Virus record (IMG/VR): IMGVR_UViG_3300032116_000065
Span: 1-64,000 of that record
Strand: one strand, 5' to 3'
DNA from: a virus
DNA: 64,000 nt
The position numbers and the translations under genes are program-made. The notes beneath the pieces are model-generated. The model saw only the letters and a list, made by a program, of their open reading frames with translations. It was not told where the DNA came from and made no database searches. How positions within the stretch are numbered: the stretch's first letter is position 1; every line of letters begins with the position of its first letter. Of the stretch, positions 7,170-27,518 are shown piece after piece.

Positions 7170-7175
7170 ACAACT

Positions 7176-7235
7176 ATTATCGTACAGACAGGCTAAAACA
7201 ACAACAGAAAAAACTCTAATAAAATCAATAACTTA
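7176..7235 (-). promoter_or_regulatory. promoter TTGTTG-N17-GATAAT with upstream IHF site
   Basis: AATCAATAACTTA at 7223-7235, A-tract at 7208-7213. Confidence 0.65.
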
Positions 7236-9952: not shown

Positions 9953-9978
9953 ATTCTTTATCTTACTCTACAATTTCT

Positions 9979-10008
9979 AAAAAGTAAAGTCGCCCCTTTC
10001 GGGGCGAC
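9979..10008 (-). terminator. intrinsic terminator
   Basis: GTCGCCCC-GAAA-GGGGCGAC followed by TTTACTTTTT. Confidence 0.85.
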
Positions 10009-10020
10009 CCTTGTTATTGG

Positions 10021-10251
10021 TTAGGCTATCGTGTCTACGCTTTCGTTTCCGTTACCGTAGTCCGTGATTTCGTCTATGAATCCGCGTCCGTCGTACTTGC
10101 CGTTGTTATAAGTGACTACCGTGTTTAGCGTGAAAAACGCTTTTCGTCGGCTTTTGGTTCTTAATACTAGTTTGCTGCCGTCTACTAATCCCTTTCCCGT
10201 GAATGGGTTTGTAACTTTTGCGCTTTTGTAAACTTCGTAATATACCTTCAT
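10021..10251 (-). CDS. 76-aa hypothetical early protein (start MKVYYE)
   Basis: Own promoter, AAGGA SD and terminator; the longer ORF overlaps the promoter. Confidence 0.7.
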   Translation of the reverse strand: MKVYYEVYKSAKVTNPFTGKGLVDGSKLVLRTKSRRKAFFTLNTVVTYNNGKYDGRGFIDEITDYGNGNESVDTIA

Positions 10252-10297
10252 TTTTTTCCTTCGCCGTGTTTGCGGCTTTCTTTCACCAACACAGAAT

Positions 10298-10418
10298 ATT
10301 ATCCTATAAAACGGCTGAAAAGGCAACAGAAAAAACCTGAATAAAATCAATAACTTATAACCTATTGATTTATAAGGCTTTTTTTTCTGTTGACTCGAAT
10401 ACGAAATCCCTATACAAT
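10298..10418. promoter_or_regulatory. divergent sigma70 promoters with two abutting inverted IHF sites
   Basis: Minus: TTGCCT-N17-GATAAT; plus: TTGACT-N17-TACAAT; IHF cores at 10345-10357 and 10358-10370. Confidence 0.8.
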
Positions 10419-10585
10419 ATTAGATCAAATTGTTTCTCTGAGGGGTATATAACATTATAACGTTATAACGACAGAACATTACTACTGAACGGGACTCGTT
10501 TAGTAGTAAGGTGTTAGATTGTAAAAATAGGTTATGTTTAAGGAGTAAGGTCAGAATGTTTCTGACCGTATAGAGAGAGTGACGT

Positions 10586-10771
10586 ATGAAAACTGAAAAG
10601 TTTGGTTATAAAGTAACGATCAATCACCCTTTTCGCCTTCCTGGGCAACCTAAAAAGCGTGAGCCTGTGGTAGTGGTGAAATCTGAACGAGAGGCGAATC
10701 TGATAGCCTTTCGGCTGAACGGTCGGTCTCGCGTTGAGCCTATGTATAAAGTTGAAAAAGTCGTAGCCTAA
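10586..10771 (+). CDS. small basic hypothetical protein
   Basis: Downstream of the plus-strand promoter, purine-rich SD. Confidence 0.65.
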   Translation: MKTEKFGYKVTINHPFRLPGQPKKREPVVVVKSEREANLIAFRLNGRSRVEPMYKVEKVVA

Positions 10772-10784
10772 ACTGGAGAGTATT

Positions 10785-10925
10785 GTGAAAAAGACTAAAG
10801 TGAAAAAAGTTAAATTTGTCTACTCTTTTAAGAAGTTTCGCCGTGATGCTCGGAAACACGGTCCTATGAAAATCTATACGCCTGATGAAGTTCGCGCGTT
10901 TAATATTCTGCGTGGTTTGATCTAA
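10785..10925 (+). CDS. small basic protein (46 aa, GTG start, not in ORF track)
   Basis: GGAG SD; ends at the terminator. Confidence 0.6.
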   Translation: MKKTKVKKVKFVYSFKKFRRDARKHGPMKIYTPDEVRAFNILRGLI

Positions 10926-10960
10926 AAAAATGGGGGGCGAAAGCCCCCCATCTTCTTTCT
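10924..10960. terminator. bidirectional intrinsic terminator
   Basis: A7-TGGGGGGC-GAAA-GCCCCCCA-TCTTCTTTT between convergent genes. Confidence 0.9.
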
Positions 10961-10974
10961 AGGTTTTCTAAAAC

Positions 10975-12012
10975 TTAGAATGTGTAGACAAGGTCGACCA
11001 TGAGTCGCTTGTAGTCTACTTTGCTGGCACCAACTTCAACATCGAAGTAAGATCCACGAACAGCCCAGCCATCGGCTAGACCATAAGCAGCGCGAAGTGC
11101 TGTGCCGTCATGAAGAACTGCTTCACCACCAAAGTCACTATCTGTCCATAAGGCTGATAGTGCGTTGGCTTCTGCGTCTTGCTTCATTAGGCTGACTTCC
11201 CAATCACCTGCTTTCTTAACGCCGCCAAGACGGACGCCATAAGCAAGTGCTGTGTCTGCTTTCTTTGCTTCATCATTCTTCAATTGCTGAACAAATAGTT
11301 TTACAGGAATACCAGCAACTTCTTTTGCTGCTGATGCTGTAAGAACTAATTGCTTATGCTTTTCAGTTGAACTACAAACTGGAAGTGATGGAACTGATGC
11401 TCCACCAGCAACAGAAAGAGGATATACGATATAGCATAAAGATGCTTTAGTATTCACTTCCTGATCCAATAGTGCTGCGTGTGCAGCAACATCAAGACCA
11501 GCAACTTTCTTTGCTACGCCAACTTGTAAACCAACAAGTGTGCTATCCTTATCTGCAGCATTTTCAACCAACTTGAGTTTGAATGCTGTAGCAGATAGAC
11601 CACCATCATTTTTCAGCGCAACTGCAAGACCTTCAGGCTTGATGTCACCATCAAACATAAGACCTTCAGTAACCCATGGCTGATTCATTTTGCCAAGTGT
11701 TACTTTTACATTATCTGCAGCCGCATATTCAACATACGCCAAATTAAGATCAACGGTCTTTAACGAACCGCCAGCCATGTCATTCCATGATGACTTTGCT
11801 GAACCAGTGCGAACGCCAACAACAACTTTTGTTTTGTCATTGACATCTGCCTTGGCAACAAGACCAACGCGAAAACGATCACGATCTGAATTGGTGTTGC
11901 CAATTTCTAAACTATCACTACGATAGCCAAAATCGCCACTCCACTTTACATCGGCTGCTTGCGCAACTGACATTGATCCCAAAATAACAGATGCTAGAAT
12001 TGCTTTGTACAT
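10975..12012 (-). CDS. outer-membrane porin (putative porin family), probably for phosphate uptake
   Basis: Signal peptide, amphipathic beta strands, RDRFR and FDGDIKPEG motifs, C-terminal YTF; directly after pstS. Confidence 0.8.
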   Translation of the reverse strand: MYKAILASVILGSMSVAQAADVKWSGDFGYRSDSLEIGNTNSDRDRFRVGLVAKADVNDKTKVVVGVRTGSAKSSWNDMAGGSLKTVDLNLAYVEYAAADNVKVTLGKMNQPWVTEGLMFDGDIKPEGLAVALKNDGGLSATAFKLKLVENAADKDSTLVGLQVGVAKKVAGLDVAAHAALLDQEVNTKASLCYIVYPLSVAGGASVPSLPVCSSTEKHKQLVLTASAAKEVAGIPVKLFVQQLKNDEAKKADTALAYGVRLGGVKKAGDWEVSLMKQDAEANALSALWTDSDFGGEAVLHDGTALRAAYGLADGWAVRGSYFDVEVGASKVDYKRLMVDLVYTF

Positions 12013-12040
12013 ATTATAACTCCTTGTCTACACCGCGAAA

Positions 12041-13039
12041 TTACGGCTTAAAGTTTTTCATGACTTTAACATCATTTCTTGTTTGAGCAAGATCTGATTT
12101 ATCAAGAGAAACTAAACCACGGTCTGAAAGATAACCTTCCTCGCCAATGGCTTTGTCACTCACGTACTCATTCACGAATTCTTTGATACCAGGAATTGCA
12201 CCAATGTGCTGCTTCTTGACATAAATGAATAGTGGACGAGCCGCAGTATATTTAGACGCCGAGATTGTTTCGAAAGACGGTACAATCCCGTCGATTTTCA
12301 AGCCTTTTAGTTTATCTGTGTTCTCTTCCAAGAAAGAATAACCAAAAATACCAAGAGCATTCTTATTTGTTGCAAGTTTTTGAGCAATCAAATTATCATT
12401 CTCACCTGCTTCAGCATAAGCACCATCTTCACGAATTGCGTGACATGCCTTTTTGTTTTCAAGAGCACATCCTTCTTCCATGAATAACTCTAGGAAACTA
12501 TCACGTGTTCCAGAAGTTGGTGGTGGACCAAGCACTTCAATCTTGATTGCTGGTAAAGAAGCATCAACATCTTTCCATGTTTTATTTGGATTCGCAATCA
12601 TTTGACCAGATGCGTTTGGAATTGTTTTAGCAAGAGCGACATAGACTTGCTTCTTTGTCAATGCAGATAATGCACCTGCTTTGCTTTCTGCGATAACAAT
12701 TCCATCAAAGCCAATCTTGACTTCTAGAATTTCTGTCACGCCATTCTTTGCGCATGTTTCAACTTCAGACTTCTTCATTGCGCGTGATGCATTTACAACA
12801 TCAGGATGCTGCGGACCAATACCTGCGCAGAACATTTTGATTCCACCACCAGTGCCAGTTGACTCGACCTTTGGTGTTTTGAACTTACCACCACGACCGA
12901 ACTGTTCAGCAACAGCAGTAGTGAATGGGTATACAGTTGAAGATCCTACGATTGCGATCTGATCTCTTGATTGCGCATTCGCAACATGAGATGCAACAAT
13001 AAGACCAAGAGCGAATAGAACAGCGAGTTTAGATTTCAT
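12041..13039 (-). CDS. pstS: periplasmic phosphate-binding protein PstS
   Basis: Signal peptide, GSSTVYP, STGTGGG, SGTRD, RPLFIY. Confidence 0.95.
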   Translation of the reverse strand: MKSKLAVLFALGLIVASHVANAQSRDQIAIVGSSTVYPFTTAVAEQFGRGGKFKTPKVESTGTGGGIKMFCAGIGPQHPDVVNASRAMKKSEVETCAKNGVTEILEVKIGFDGIVIAESKAGALSALTKKQVYVALAKTIPNASGQMIANPNKTWKDVDASLPAIKIEVLGPPPTSGTRDSFLELFMEEGCALENKKACHAIREDGAYAEAGENDNLIAQKLATNKNALGIFGYSFLEENTDKLKGLKIDGIVPSFETISASKYTAARPLFIYVKKQHIGAIPGIKEFVNEYVSDKAIGEEGYLSDRGLVSLDKSDLAQTRNDVKVMKNFKP

Positions 13040-24274: not shown

Positions 24275-24814
24275 TTATTTAGCCAATGGATTTTCCCATG
24301 CTTTTTGAATCTTCTCGTCGACTTTCTTCTCTAATTCCTTTAATTTAGCGTCTGTTTCGCGCTCGATCGCTCTCAATCGCGCCGACATATCGCGATCTGT
24401 GACGCCGACGAATCCACGGACTTCCTTATCTAACTCGCGATTACGTCTTTCGGCGGCATCGACATCGGCTTGAAGGCTATCGATATCACCTTTTAGATCT
24501 GAACGAACGTCGCGGATAATATCACCACTTTCATCGACCATGACAACTGCATTATCAACACGCTCTTCCATCTTGGTGATGCGCTCTTGGATTGCGGATA
24601 AGTCTGGAGCAACATACTCTTGAATCTGTTGCTTCATGTCCATGTAATCTTTATAGAACTCAAAGGCTCCATAAAGACCACCCAATACAGTAGATACAAT
24701 ACCGCCAGCGATCATTAACTTTGCTGGGGTAAAACTGTACCCACCAATGCTGATGACCGTATTTGGGTCAACTGCTGCTTCTAGTTTATCTACCTTCTCG
24801 TCTAAATCGCTCAT
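24275..24814 (-). CDS. membrane-anchored coiled-coil protein
   Basis: One TM followed by long heptads; ends NPLAK. Confidence 0.8.
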   Translation of the reverse strand: MSDLDEKVDKLEAAVDPNTVISIGGYSFTPAKLMIAGGIVSTVLGGLYGAFEFYKDYMDMKQQIQEYVAPDLSAIQERITKMEERVDNAVVMVDESGDIIRDVRSDLKGDIDSLQADVDAAERRNRELDKEVRGFVGVTDRDMSARLRAIERETDAKLKELEKKVDEKIQKAWENPLAK

Positions 24815-24837: not shown

Positions 24838-25281
24838 TTATCTAGTTATAATATAAGCAAATCCAAAAATTATGCCAACAAGCATAAAAAATAAAATTCC
24901 TACACAAACCATTAATGTAATTTCTTCTTGCCTGTGCGCGGCTTCAATTTCAGCGCGACGCCTTGCTTGCGCTGCTGCTAATTCCATCTGCGCATGCATT
25001 TTTTGAAACTTTACCCAATCATCCCATAATCCAGGTCGCCCAGCAATCAACATATAGTCTTTAAGTTCTCTTTCCTTTCTTCGCACTTCTTCTAATGCAA
25101 AAAATTCTTCTAGTCGGCTGCGCTCATTTGCAGGTGTTTCAATAACTTTCTTTTCTAACTTTCGTTTACCTTCAAAGAAACTTCCTAATTGACCTGCACA
25201 CTCACCTAATTCTCTGCCGTTAGAGACAACCTCCTTGATAACAGCATATGCAGCATTGATTGCTGCCAGTTCTGCTAACAT
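24838..25281 (-). CDS. helical protein with C-terminal TM
   Basis: TAATG-coupled ORF. Confidence 0.75.
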   Translation of the reverse strand: MLAELAAINAAYAVIKEVVSNGRELGECAGQLGSFFEGKRKLEKKVIETPANERSRLEEFFALEEVRRKERELKDYMLIAGRPGLWDDWVKFQKMHAQMELAAAQARRRAEIEAAHRQEEITLMVCVGILFFMLVGIIFGFAYIITR

Positions 25282-27518
25282 TACTTGTACTGTTCTTCGA
25301 TCATTTTTTTATAAGTGTCTGTGTTTCCTTTTTCAAGGAAATATGCGCCACGGGCATTGTCCTTAATAATAACACCTTTGTAGATGTCTTCTGGTCTATA
25401 GAACGGTACATCTGGAATTCTTTGTGTTAGATATGAACTTACATCTGCATCTACTGCAATTGCTGATACAATGCCTGATTGATCAGCGTCCATGTAGTTT
25501 GCATTAATCGCATCTTGTTGCTCTTTATTAGCAGCAACTACTTGCTCTGCACGAACCTCAGCGTCACTCTTTTCTTCTATTGGCTTGATAATTCCAAGGA
25601 ATTCAAGACTCATCGCATTTGGCGCTTGATTAAATGTATTAGCCATTGCTAATGCTGGATCAACCATCGCTGTTGTTACTTCTGCGTCTTTGCTTGACTC
25701 ATCATCAAATGCACTTTGGTCTGCTGTGGCGCGACTGGCTTCCACAACTGCAAGTGCCTCATCTGTTTCTACAATATCAACAGTTGGACCACGAACAAAT
25801 GATTCAGCAAGCATCTCAGCTTCTTGTTCAATTTGGCTTGTTGTTTCACTTGTTGCAAACTCAACTGTTTGCCCCATATCTGTTTGCACTTCTGCGCCAG
25901 AATCAGCAACCACTGTTTCTTGTTGTGTTACATCTTCTGATACAGAAGCACCAACCTGTGTTTCTGTTGTCTGCTGTTCGGTCACGCTTTGAGCAGATAT
26001 ATCAGTTGATTGCGTTTCCGTGGACACTGCGGCAGTAGATTGAGTTGTAACTGATGCTTCGCTTGAGAATGTTGCAATTGATTCAGCTTCTCTTGAAGAA
26101 TCATTAGATGCAGCATCACTTGCAGCTAAAGTTTCTGATAATGCTTGTTGACCTATTTGTCTACCAGTCTCAAGGACATCTAATCCAGTATCGGATACGG
26201 ATGAACTTTCTTCTTTTTGTTCTGTGAAGACATCTGCAGCTGCTACTATTTCGGTTGACTCAGCTACACTTGATTGATCATTAGATGATCTGGTTGTTGT
26301 AGTAGTTGCTGCACTTTCTGTAGTAGGACCACTAGCAGCATTGGTAGTTGATGAACTAACTTCTGATGCAATTGTAAGGGCATTTTGTAATACATCTTTA
26401 GAAATTGCGTCAGCAAGAATCTGAGCCTTTTCTTCATCAGTTAGTTCTCTATAAGTTGCAACAACTGCTGGCTCTGCTAGATCTTCTGCTACATCCTCAA
26501 CCAGTAAGATTTCTTCTTCATCAGTTTCTTCAGCAAGCATTTCTTCTAGGTCTTGGTCAAGAAGTTCTTCAGTTGCTTCTTCATCAGCAACATATATTTC
26601 TTCTTCCTCTTCCTCAACATATTCAGAGCCATCATCTGAACCATCATCACTTCCATCGTCAACTAGTTCTTCAAGTTCTTCTTGAGTCGCTTCCTGTTCT
26701 TCAATAGCAGCTAAAATTTCTTCTGGGTCGGTGTAGTCAGTTACACCATCGTCAATACCAATAGTATCAATCACACAAGAAGGGTCGTATGGATTTGTGG
26801 TACAATCAGGGGCTGTTGATATTGGAACAATCTCTGATGACTGCACAAAGTATGTTGTGTTTTGTAAAGATGATGGATTGTTGCCCCAATAAAATTGAGT
26901 AAATTCTGTGGCAGTGTCGCCCTGAAAACCAGAGGTAAATGTTCTACCTGTTGCCATTGTATAATCAAACGAACCGTAATTTATAGAAAAACTACTATCA
27001 GCAAATAACCTAATTTCAAAATCAAACTTATTTGGTGAACCTAATTCATCAACGCCATACCAACCAACAGTGAATGAATTTCCTGTAGACTTATAATACG
27101 GATTGCCTGGATTATTAAAATCAGCAAGATCTGACCACATAGCAAAAATGCTATTGTTTAAATTATAGTATGATTGATTAGATAAAAATGGCAATTCATT
27201 ACCACTGCAGCAACCATTGGCATTGCTGGTAAAACTTATCAATCCATTTTGCGAGATATAAACTGAATCAAACAAACTACCAAAAAAGTAAAAATCAAAT
27301 TGTAAGTCAATTGGTTGGAAAGTAGAACCATCATCATACAATGTTAATGGTATTCCAATTGAGTTTTGATTGATATTTTGTAATGGTGTTTGTGATTGCG
27401 TAACAGTATATGTCTGTTCAACCGTAGGATCATATATAGGGGGCGGTGGTGGCGGAGTGTACTCCTGCGCGAACGCAGGAGCCACCGCCAATAGTAGTAG
27501 AGCGAGAAGTCGCTTCAT
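25281..27518 (-). CDS. large secreted protein: nidogen(NIDO)-like domain plus long acidic/Ser-Thr region
   Basis: Signal peptide, FDFYFFG..FDSVYISQNGLISF...IFAMWSDL, CxxxPxDPxC, E/D-rich linker. Confidence 0.75.
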   Translation of the reverse strand: MKRLLALLLLAVAPAFAQEYTPPPPPPIYDPTVEQTYTVTQSQTPLQNINQNSIGIPLTLYDDGSTFQPIDLQFDFYFFGSLFDSVYISQNGLISFTSNANGCCSGNELPFLSNQSYYNLNNSIFAMWSDLADFNNPGNPYYKSTGNSFTVGWYGVDELGSPNKFDFEIRLFADSSFSINYGSFDYTMATGRTFTSGFQGDTATEFTQFYWGNNPSSLQNTTYFVQSSEIVPISTAPDCTTNPYDPSCVIDTIGIDDGVTDYTDPEEILAAIEEQEATQEELEELVDDGSDDGSDDGSEYVEEEEEEIYVADEEATEELLDQDLEEMLAEETDEEEILLVEDVAEDLAEPAVVATYRELTDEEKAQILADAISKDVLQNALTIASEVSSSTTNAASGPTTESAATTTTTRSSNDQSSVAESTEIVAAADVFTEQKEESSSVSDTGLDVLETGRQIGQQALSETLAASDAASNDSSREAESIATFSSEASVTTQSTAAVSTETQSTDISAQSVTEQQTTETQVGASVSEDVTQQETVVADSGAEVQTDMGQTVEFATSETTSQIEQEAEMLAESFVRGPTVDIVETDEALAVVEASRATADQSAFDDESSKDAEVTTAMVDPALAMANTFNQAPNAMSLEFLGIIKPIEEKSDAEVRAEQVVAANKEQQDAINANYMDADQSGIVSAIAVDADVSSYLTQRIPDVPFYRPEDIYKGVIIKDNARGAYFLEKGNTDTYKKMIEEQYK

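Follow-up and report, generated by a model that had tools for sequence, protein, structure and literature searches.

A divergent island depleted of one dinucleotide on one strand

The DNA analysed here is a window of 64 kb, the first part of a 101,318-nt IMG/VR virus contig (IMGVR_UViG_3300032116_000065, hereafter G000) with an estimated completeness of 60%, and the element in question is an island of small genes at its positions 9973-10948 in which the dinucleotide CA is nearly absent from the plus strand, as is TG, correspondingly, from the minus strand. Nearly all genes of the window lie on the minus strand, which we refer to as the main strand. PHROG and Pfam matches (ribonucleotide reductase, baseplate wedge and tail-fibre proteins, PstS, porin), together with the distant relatives of a 366-aa gene adjoining the island, which occur in Cr30, phiM12, Stenotrophomonas phages and PA5oct, show that the contig belongs, judging by gene content, to a T4-like myovirus, and near-identical sequence is found in many lake or freshwater metagenomes. 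The best explanation of the island is a pair of early cassettes, divergent and self-contained, each equipped with a promoter and a terminator of its own and situated within the variable early region of a T4-like phage from fresh water; one carries the gene p76 and the other the genes p61 and p46 (Table 1).

Recounting agreed exactly with the one and four CA dinucleotides that an earlier reading of the letters alone (hereafter the sequence-only reading) had reported for two stretches of the plus strand. In the first stretch (9973-10283, 311 nt), the single CA lies at 10249 and is the complement of the p76 ATG; in the second (10554-10948, 395 nt), the four lie at 10621 (an ATC/AAT codon junction), 10625 (His CAC), 10646 (Gln CAA) and 10857 (His CAC). 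The counts also bear out that plus-strand TG is not depleted in the island (20 in the first stretch and 32 in the second) and that CA is abundant elsewhere: contig-wide it is the commonest plus-strand dinucleotide of two different letters after AT, making up 8.2% of dinucleotides and averaging 24.7 per 300 nt (standard deviation 6.5). Two 300-nt windows in the island hold one CA each, and the next lowest count on the contig is 7. Runs of 278 and 211 nt without CA, both in the island, are among the three longest, and the maximum elsewhere is 96 nt. The codon details proposed from the letters alone were likewise recovered, with Leu encoded only by TTA or CTA, Ser only by AGC and no NNT-G junction in p76, and with Pro always encoded by CCT in the plus-strand genes.

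The significance of these counts was assessed by shuffling, in which the protein was held fixed and synonymous codons were drawn from the phage's own usage (20,000 shuffles), and an analytic version of the same test was run over all 127 open reading frames (ORFs). The sense strand of p76 presented 0 TG against 14.4 expected (z -5.6), the lowest of the 20,000 shuffles containing 5, and sense CA numbered 3 against 9.9 expected in p61 (P 2e-4) and 1 against 6.9 in p46 (P 6.5e-4). These three genes head the outlier ranking of the analytic test. The purge, for which the sequence-only reading had dismissed ordinary codon bias as an explanation, is confirmed as real and far beyond chance. Its pattern also differs from classical restriction-site avoidance, a genome-wide loss of palindromic 4-6-mers, in being local, strand-specific and directed at a dinucleotide that is otherwise abundant.

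A check of all 16 dinucleotides revealed that TG is the largest deficit and CG the largest excess in p76-type genes, which also display a general shift from T to C at third codon positions; p76 itself has 21 CpG against 8.7 expected. In p61 and p46, CA is the sole deviant and is mostly exchanged for CT. The p76 protein is devoid of His, Gln, Trp, Cys and internal Met. These five amino acids, which force CA or TG, are absent from the window p76 even though its sense strand permits CA (16 are present, ACA included), and p76 homologues retain His, Gln, Trp and occasionally Cys. The p46 gene contains AAACAC, at the CA of 10857.

In agreement with the terminator-bounded divergent island of the sequence-only reading, scanning found hairpins resembling terminators and a pair of divergent promoter-like sites, the latter lying back to back around a palindromic block that is common to other promoters of the contig and had been read there as an IHF-like site. 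CA and TG are not depleted in this block, nor is the surrounding promoter region purged (13 CA in the 270 nt of 10284-10553). On the p76 side, the 3' untranslated region (UTR) and terminator, which overlap the upstream part of the 366-aa gene, contain no plus-strand CA, and the predicted leader is free of TG apart from its first ~9 nt. The proposal that the p76 message is free of UG holds for its body and would fail for its first 9 nt, since the mRNA probably starts near 10291 and would have 3-4 UG there (CA at 10284-10292 of the plus strand). On the p61-p46 side, the leader has 5 CA against ~13 expected and may be a regulatory leader according to folding predictions. It folds better than shuffled sequences (z -3.0), two of its hairpins are conserved in the related locus L005 with a few compensatory changes, and a search of the region against Rfam, leader included, returned nothing near threshold.

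Table 1. Coordinates of the island features and their neighbours in the window, and of the modification gene cluster in the relative G001
Feature	Position	Strand	Remarks
p76 3' UTR and intrinsic terminator	9973..10020	-	hairpin 9986-10011, then T-run on - strand
p76, 76-aa small protein gene	10021..10251	-	sense-strand TG only in start codon
Predicted p76 leader, 40 nt, Shine-Dalgarno GAAGGA	10252..10291	-	start predicted from promoter-like site
Sigma-70-type promoter-like site TTGCCT-17-GATAAT for p76	10298..10326	-	scan
Palindromic AATCAATA...TATTGATT block	10345..10370	unstranded	copies at 7175-7235 and 95938-95977
Sigma-70-type promoter-like site TTGACT-17-TACAAT for p61-p46 operon	10390..10418	+	scan
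Structured leader (~160 nt) of p61-p46 operon	10424..10585	+	folding; two hairpins kept in L005
p61, 61-aa basic protein gene	10586..10771	+	sense CA at forced minimum (3)
p46, 46-aa basic protein gene, GTG start	10785..10925	+	sense CA at forced minimum (1)
Bidirectional terminator hairpin	10930..10951	unstranded	common to p61-p46 operon and convergent porin gene
Porin gene, neighbour of pstS	10975-13039	-	convergent with p61-p46 operon
Thymine-hypermodification cluster	G001:C1:104000-120000 (L037)	n/a	profile matches

Pfam and PHROG scans assigned no family to p76, p61 or p46, and similarity searches with the island and with p76 against cultured phages yielded no match. At least 158 clusters of p76 homologues are present in metagenomes, none of them named. 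The AlphaFold2 (AF2) model of p76 (pLDDT 86) is a small beta-beta-alpha-beta-beta domain, for which comparison with PDB and BFVD returned weak PsaD-like or uncharacterised matches, none of them convincing. No raw DNA reads fell on the stretch in two 2026 runs. Metatranscriptome contigs from two freshwater runs cover the porin gene at 11020-12000 and not the island, a coverage that may include DNA carry-over.

Conservation, extent and strand of the purge

To place the purge in context, we compared 29 IMG/VR loci carrying the 366-aa gene (identified by L-numbers) and several genomes of relatives, among them G001 (173 kb) and G002 (197 kb), both complete. Twelve distinct p76 homologues, with 36-53% amino-acid identity to the window p76, contain 0-6 sense TG per ~200 nt, mostly residing in Trp and Cys codons, and 13-23 CpG. 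In L005 and L016 the p76 slot is occupied by an unrelated 101-aa gene, and L009, L022, L024 and L026 harbor a further unrelated family ('MKxENT..GFDYP', hereafter ENT; 65-77 aa), present as insertions in L009, L022 and L026; both are equally TG-poor on the same strand. The test proposed by the sequence-only reading for orthologous islands therefore finds the depletion kept and, because it is kept in 12 diverged p76 homologues and in two unrelated families at one locus, selection maintains it. The p61 and p46 genes are present in only four loci, where they are always inverted with respect to the main strand. These orthologues (p46 in L005, L015 and L016; p61 in L005, with 65% identity and a weaker purge) avoid CA too, and encode Pro by CCT in 15 of 15 codons.

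The choice of codons in the p76 family depends on what follows them. A pyrimidine preceding a codon that starts with G is T in 12 of 139 cases (9%), compared with 107 of 274 (39%) before other codons; in ordinary genes of the phage, the same junction before G carries T in 79%. We regard this codon-context test as decisive for selection acting on TG itself. The same result bears on the extremely improbable explanation that the cassettes were imported from a source with other codon usage and that the depletion is inherited composition. In line with that origin, the region is variable, cassette GC content is 43-54% against 41%, and other GC-rich small genes in relatives are low in CA together with AA and TA. 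However, the loss of TG depends on codon context in a way that codon usage alone does not produce, a dependence that excludes foreign composition, and CA is the sole deviant dinucleotide in p61 and p46, while the feature persists in homologues at ~40% identity. Moreover, we know of no genome without TG.

The purge is confined to individual cassettes. At loci with 1-2.4 kb between p76 and the 366-aa gene, the intervening genes are normal in TG, and in the complete relatives G001 and G002 the purged-cassette families are the only specific outliers. Given that neighboring genes are normal, the purge is a property of single cassettes rather than of the region. In the TG-type cassettes of relatives, the 35 nt upstream contain 50 TG against 49 expected, and the 45 nt past the stop codon contain 36 against 63 expected; with the upstream sequence normal and the downstream sequence half depleted, the purge coincides with the transcribed part.

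In the promoters of these TG-type cassettes, 6-9 nt separate the -10 hexamer from the ATG, frequently in the form TATAAT-GGTTGT-ATG. This spacing is seen at p76 homologues of L006, L007, L009, L014-L018, L022 and L026, in the ENT family of L009, L022, L024 and L026, and in the 101-aa gene of L016 and L020. Because of it, the corresponding mRNAs are probably leaderless, and in this respect the window p76 differs from its relatives, as it has a leader of ~40 nt with a Shine-Dalgarno sequence. Leaderless messages lend some appeal to a translational logic, in which a sense strand without NTG offers no alternative start codon (ATG, GTG, TTG or CTG) in any frame, as would suit very short or leaderless mRNAs. 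We nevertheless consider this logic decidedly improbable, for it leaves unexplained both the CA avoidance of p61 and p46 and the purged 3' UTR and terminator in the window, and an NTG inside a gene normally does no harm if no Shine-Dalgarno sequence accompanies it.

The purged physical strand is identical in every locus examined. In p76-type genes, as in nearly all phage genes, the TG-free strand serves as sense strand, and for p61 and p46 it is the template; the TG-free strand would also be the lagging-strand template if replication runs with transcription. The statement of the sequence-only reading that the purge falls on one and the same strand regardless of the coding strand was thus upheld in the window and in every relative examined, with the reservation that the strand rule rests on only two independent transcription units, so that their agreement could be coincidence, as would be expected beforehand half of the time. 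Four main-strand CA-poor genes (G001 24285-24659 and 25170-25598; G002 72265 and 91447) were considered as counter-examples to this rule and rejected, since they are GC-rich genes with scarce A-ending codons in which AA, TA and CA are all low. A 189-nt CA-free gap at the end of the distant relative G004 (G004:C1:125344-125532) was likewise discarded as an artefact of a collagen-like Gly-X-Y repeat gene, a case illustrating that repeats are able to mimic dinucleotide purges.

The strand-specific form of the purge constrains its mechanism, as one strand must be read by something. Flexibility of the DNA at the CA/TG step was rejected as a cause: the step is the same in both orientations and only one orientation is purged, so a property of the duplex cannot be responsible. 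Interpretations as a replication origin or R-loop and as a primase site were weighed too, and nothing was found in support of them.

A TG-shielding footprint and thymine-modification genes

If thymine is marked where G follows, only restriction sites shielded by a TG should persist. Such survival contexts can be examined in the genome sequences of the window phage and its relatives. In G000, CCGG, whose flanks cannot supply TG, is absent (0 against 66 expected). GGCC occurs 10 times against 105 expected, and 10 of 10 sites read TGGCCA, where the neutral chance per flank is 0.51. AGCT occurs 72 times against 301 expected, and its depletion is graded by context: sites without a TG half-context number 6 against 112 expected (a ratio of 0.05), compared with ratios of 0.32 for sites with one half and 0.44 for those with two. 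The same footprint is present in G001, where CCGG is absent, all seven surviving GGCC sites read TGGCCA, and AGCT without a TG half-context is depleted to a similar extent (12- to 20-fold in G000 and G001). G002 is stricter, with 20 of 20 GGCC sites reading TGGCCA, 0 of 13 AGCT sites without a TG half and 3 CCGG against 133 expected. In G004, which shares 49% identity in the 366-aa protein and is 73% complete, no Tet_JBP match was found, CCGG and AGCT are kept, GGCC sites are not TGGCCA and there is no TG-purged gene. The window genome hence behaves, by the contexts in which its restriction sites survive, as if the T in TG were protected.

Consistent with this footprint, genes for thymine modification were identified in close relatives. 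Matches to Tet_JBP (PF12851) above the Pfam cut-off (E 1e-26) are present in G001, G002 and a third relative, G005. In G001 the dioxygenase (Tet/JBP, 430 aa) is followed by a GATase, and its cluster further comprises an AAA_5 ATPase, a small protein resembling helix-turn-helix (HTH) proteins, a GNAT, a protein of 443 aa that matches ParB_N weakly, an amino acid:DNA transferase (ADDT, PF18724; E 5e-20), a DNMK-like P-loop kinase (E 3e-9) and several proteins without family. The presence of transferase and kinase beside the dioxygenase was found only in this close relative. Used as a query, its ADDT protein matches Ackermannviridae and other AADT-bearing phages, and its gene set is that of the ParB-dependent clade C1 T-dioxygenases (PMC13229309). 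A hydroxymethylase of the thymidylate-synthase type (PF00303) was absent in all four genomes searched.

The published contexts of such modifications agree with the purged step. In phages M6, ViI and phiW-14, the modified T is found at TG or TC, TG being where the M6 kinase acts (PMC6449724); TG is also the modification context in SH-Ab 15599 (PMC13458397) and in Pbunavirus (PMC12191111). The ParB-dependent T-dioxygenase 5mYOX176 prefers NTG and then NTA, members of its class sit with GATase, kinase and AADT genes, and phage T-dioxygenases act on single-stranded DNA (ssDNA) without ParB and oxidise iteratively (PMC13229309). This lineage very probably attaches bulky groups to thymine at TG, as the gene content of relatives and the indirect footprint of restriction-site contexts suggest.

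Proposed selection against the phage's own modification context

These data bear on the proposal of the sequence-only reading that the purge reflects an orientation-dependent DNA constraint. A constraint at the DNA level is the better supported of its two options; the avoided step is most probably the phage's own modification context and not a host restriction site, which we favor because of the thymine-hypermodification pathway of the lineage and the TG-context footprint in the genome. Our preferred reading, to which we give an even chance of being right, is that one strand of these cassettes is under selection to lose TG, the context in which the phage itself would modify its DNA. We infer, in other words, that the purge exists because of the modification.

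In the mechanism that we propose, thymine followed by G would be modified after replication through the successive action of a Tet/JBP T-dioxygenase, a 5-hydroxymethyldeoxyuridine (5-hmdU) DNA kinase and an amino acid:DNA transferase. Selection, operating through both synonymous choice and amino-acid choice, would have recoded the cassettes such that their main-gene sense strand lacks TG and thus any modifiable thymine, so that cassette DNA could be modified on one strand at most. Three candidate benefits can be envisaged. First, the cassettes might remain intact and expressed under defences attacking modified bases on both strands, since excision or nicking by END nucleases or DNA glycosylases could not give a double-strand break where one strand is clean; for p61 and p46, the template would stay undamaged under such defences. 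END nucleases are known to attack hypermodified DNA and to act early, and small phage inhibitors counter them (PMC12191111). Second, transcription might be smoother, as RNA polymerase could otherwise be hampered in its contacts with the non-template strand by bulky marks beside G. Third, the purge could provide a replication-coupled switch, in which the island would be wholly unmarked in one of the two daughter duplexes.

Several points weigh against this reading. The modification gene cluster is not on the window contig, and neither is any neighbor of the G001 cluster; Tet_JBP is absent from the 101 kb available. The contig ends at the equivalent of G001 119,735, ~7 kb before the syntenic position, which makes the absence of the cluster uninformative. 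No purge is seen in other early genes that share this promoter type, so that modified templates are clearly transcribable, and the clean strand is sense for p76-type genes and template for p61 and p46, so that no single transcription rationale fits both. The negative control is a single genome, G004, which also lacks the p76 family. Furthermore, the first 100 kb of Kuttervirus S118, a known thymine hypermodifier, contain only one marginal TG-poor tract. That tract (NC_049437.1, 77340-77640) has 5 plus-strand TG against 21 expected and lies over the 52-aa membrane-protein gene orf112, whose amino-acid composition could explain it.

Finally, the purge begins at the mRNA start and spares promoter DNA, which an RNA-level cause would fit too. 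Under such a constraint, the mRNAs would be free of UG (p76-type) or of CA (p61 and p46) in order to evade an enzyme of short specificity that cleaves or modifies RNA, either of the host (an abortive-infection toxin or ADP-ribosyltransferase) or of the phage itself. The extent of the purge, from start codon or mRNA start to terminator with normal TG in the promoter DNA upstream, speaks for it, as does the leaderless appearance of the cassettes in relatives, in which the purge would span the whole mRNA; a defence with dinucleotide specificity reportedly exists in CmdT, which is said to modify RNA at GA. Nonetheless, we deem an RNA-level constraint unlikely. It needs two different motifs for neighboring cassettes, ACA is kept in p46 and the p76 mRNA is CA-rich, a two-letter RNase would destroy all other phage mRNAs (TG 8.2%), no nuclease candidate was found, and the TG-specific DNA shielding in the lineage is left unexplained. 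The more specific suggestion of the sequence-only reading, that these mRNAs are self-immune to RNases used in host shut-off, found no support on the same grounds, namely the need for two motifs, the ACA in p46 and the lack of a nuclease.

A local mutational bias could, for example, involve the same dioxygenase without selection: where very active genes expose their non-template strand, the T-dioxygenase would produce 5-formyluracil, an oxidised thymine that mispairs with G and would turn TG into CG. The exchange of TG for CG in TG-type genes, their general shift from T to C at third positions and the restriction of the purge to the transcribed part all conform to this scheme, as do the activity of phage T-dioxygenases on ssDNA without ParB and their iterative oxidation (PMC13229309). 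It is improbable all the same, given that the purged strand of p61 and p46 is the template and that their change from CA to CT is no transition. TG is favored genome-wide, with 79% T before G, rather than eroded; counts lie exactly at the forced minimum with Trp and Cys codons retained; and a 40-fold local shift over saturated divergence in unrelated genes is hard to obtain without selection.

Comparison with known systems

Selection against the phage's own modification context would place the island next to several known systems. Among the closest are the thymidine-hypermodifying phages (M6, ViI, phiW-14, SH-Ab 15599, Pbunavirus and the 5mYOX/ParB class), with which the relatives of the window phage share Tet/JBP, P-loop kinase, amino acid:DNA transferase and GATase, and whose published context, TG, is both the step purged here and the one shielding restriction sites. 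In the restriction-site avoidance of virulent phages, a short DNA word is likewise lost by synonymous choice, and this genome also avoids CCGG, GGCC and AGCT; the word purged from the island, in contrast, has two letters, is lost from one strand over ~1 kb and is most likely the target of the phage's own enzymes rather than of a host nuclease.

Promoter-early/stem-loop (PeSL) cassettes were reportedly described by Arbiol et al. in 2010 in hyperplastic regions of T4-type phages. The island is of the PeSL type by the features tested, namely promoter-like sites, hairpins and varying gene content at a conserved locus, and it resembles these cassettes in its small early genes, each unit with its own early promoter and a flanking stem-loop, and in gene content that varies between close relatives. 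To our knowledge, no dinucleotide purge has been described in PeSL cassettes.

The T7 gene 0.3 region and the T5 first-step-transfer DNA are motif-poor early or leading regions with anti-defence genes. The likeness lies in first-expressed DNA that is free of sequence exposing it to attack, and the differences lie in the avoided word, here linked to self-modification, and in the leading end, which is not fixed because T4-type genomes are circularly permuted. MazF-resistant mRNAs without ACA are similar in that transcripts are protected by lacking a short motif. Neither p46, in which ACA is present, nor p76, in which it is frequent, is such an ACA-less transcript, and the avoided unit is a dinucleotide that differs between the two transcription units.

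Possible implications for phages that mark thymine at TG

Full-text literature searches returned papers on TG-specific thymine marks and on the defences against them, and none on phage genes purged of that context or on a purge of one strand. New here are the strand-specific form of the purge, the purging of two unrelated gene families at a single locus, and a footprint within the genome that links the purged step with a shielded thymine. The contexts in which restriction sites survive would further allow the modification context of an uncultured phage to be read from its genome.

If the link between purge and modification holds, the purged step and the surviving restriction-site contexts would together reveal the context that an uncultured phage modifies, and the purge would reveal which genes the phage needs outside its modification. 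In that case p76, p61, p46 and the other purged families would be prime candidates for a role in counter-defence or takeover connected with modified DNA, and the island would offer a testable case for the effect of bulky thymine marks, on template versus non-template strand, on host RNA polymerase and on modification-dependent nucleases. Tentatively, and with more doubt than confidence, we suggest that TG-marking phages shape their own epigenome through sequence, keeping a few early cassettes in which one strand can never be marked. If this is true, such windows would behave unlike the rest of the chromosome, as a viral analogue of unmethylated islands, and might stay intact and transcribable under attack on modified bases, or switch at the first round of replication.

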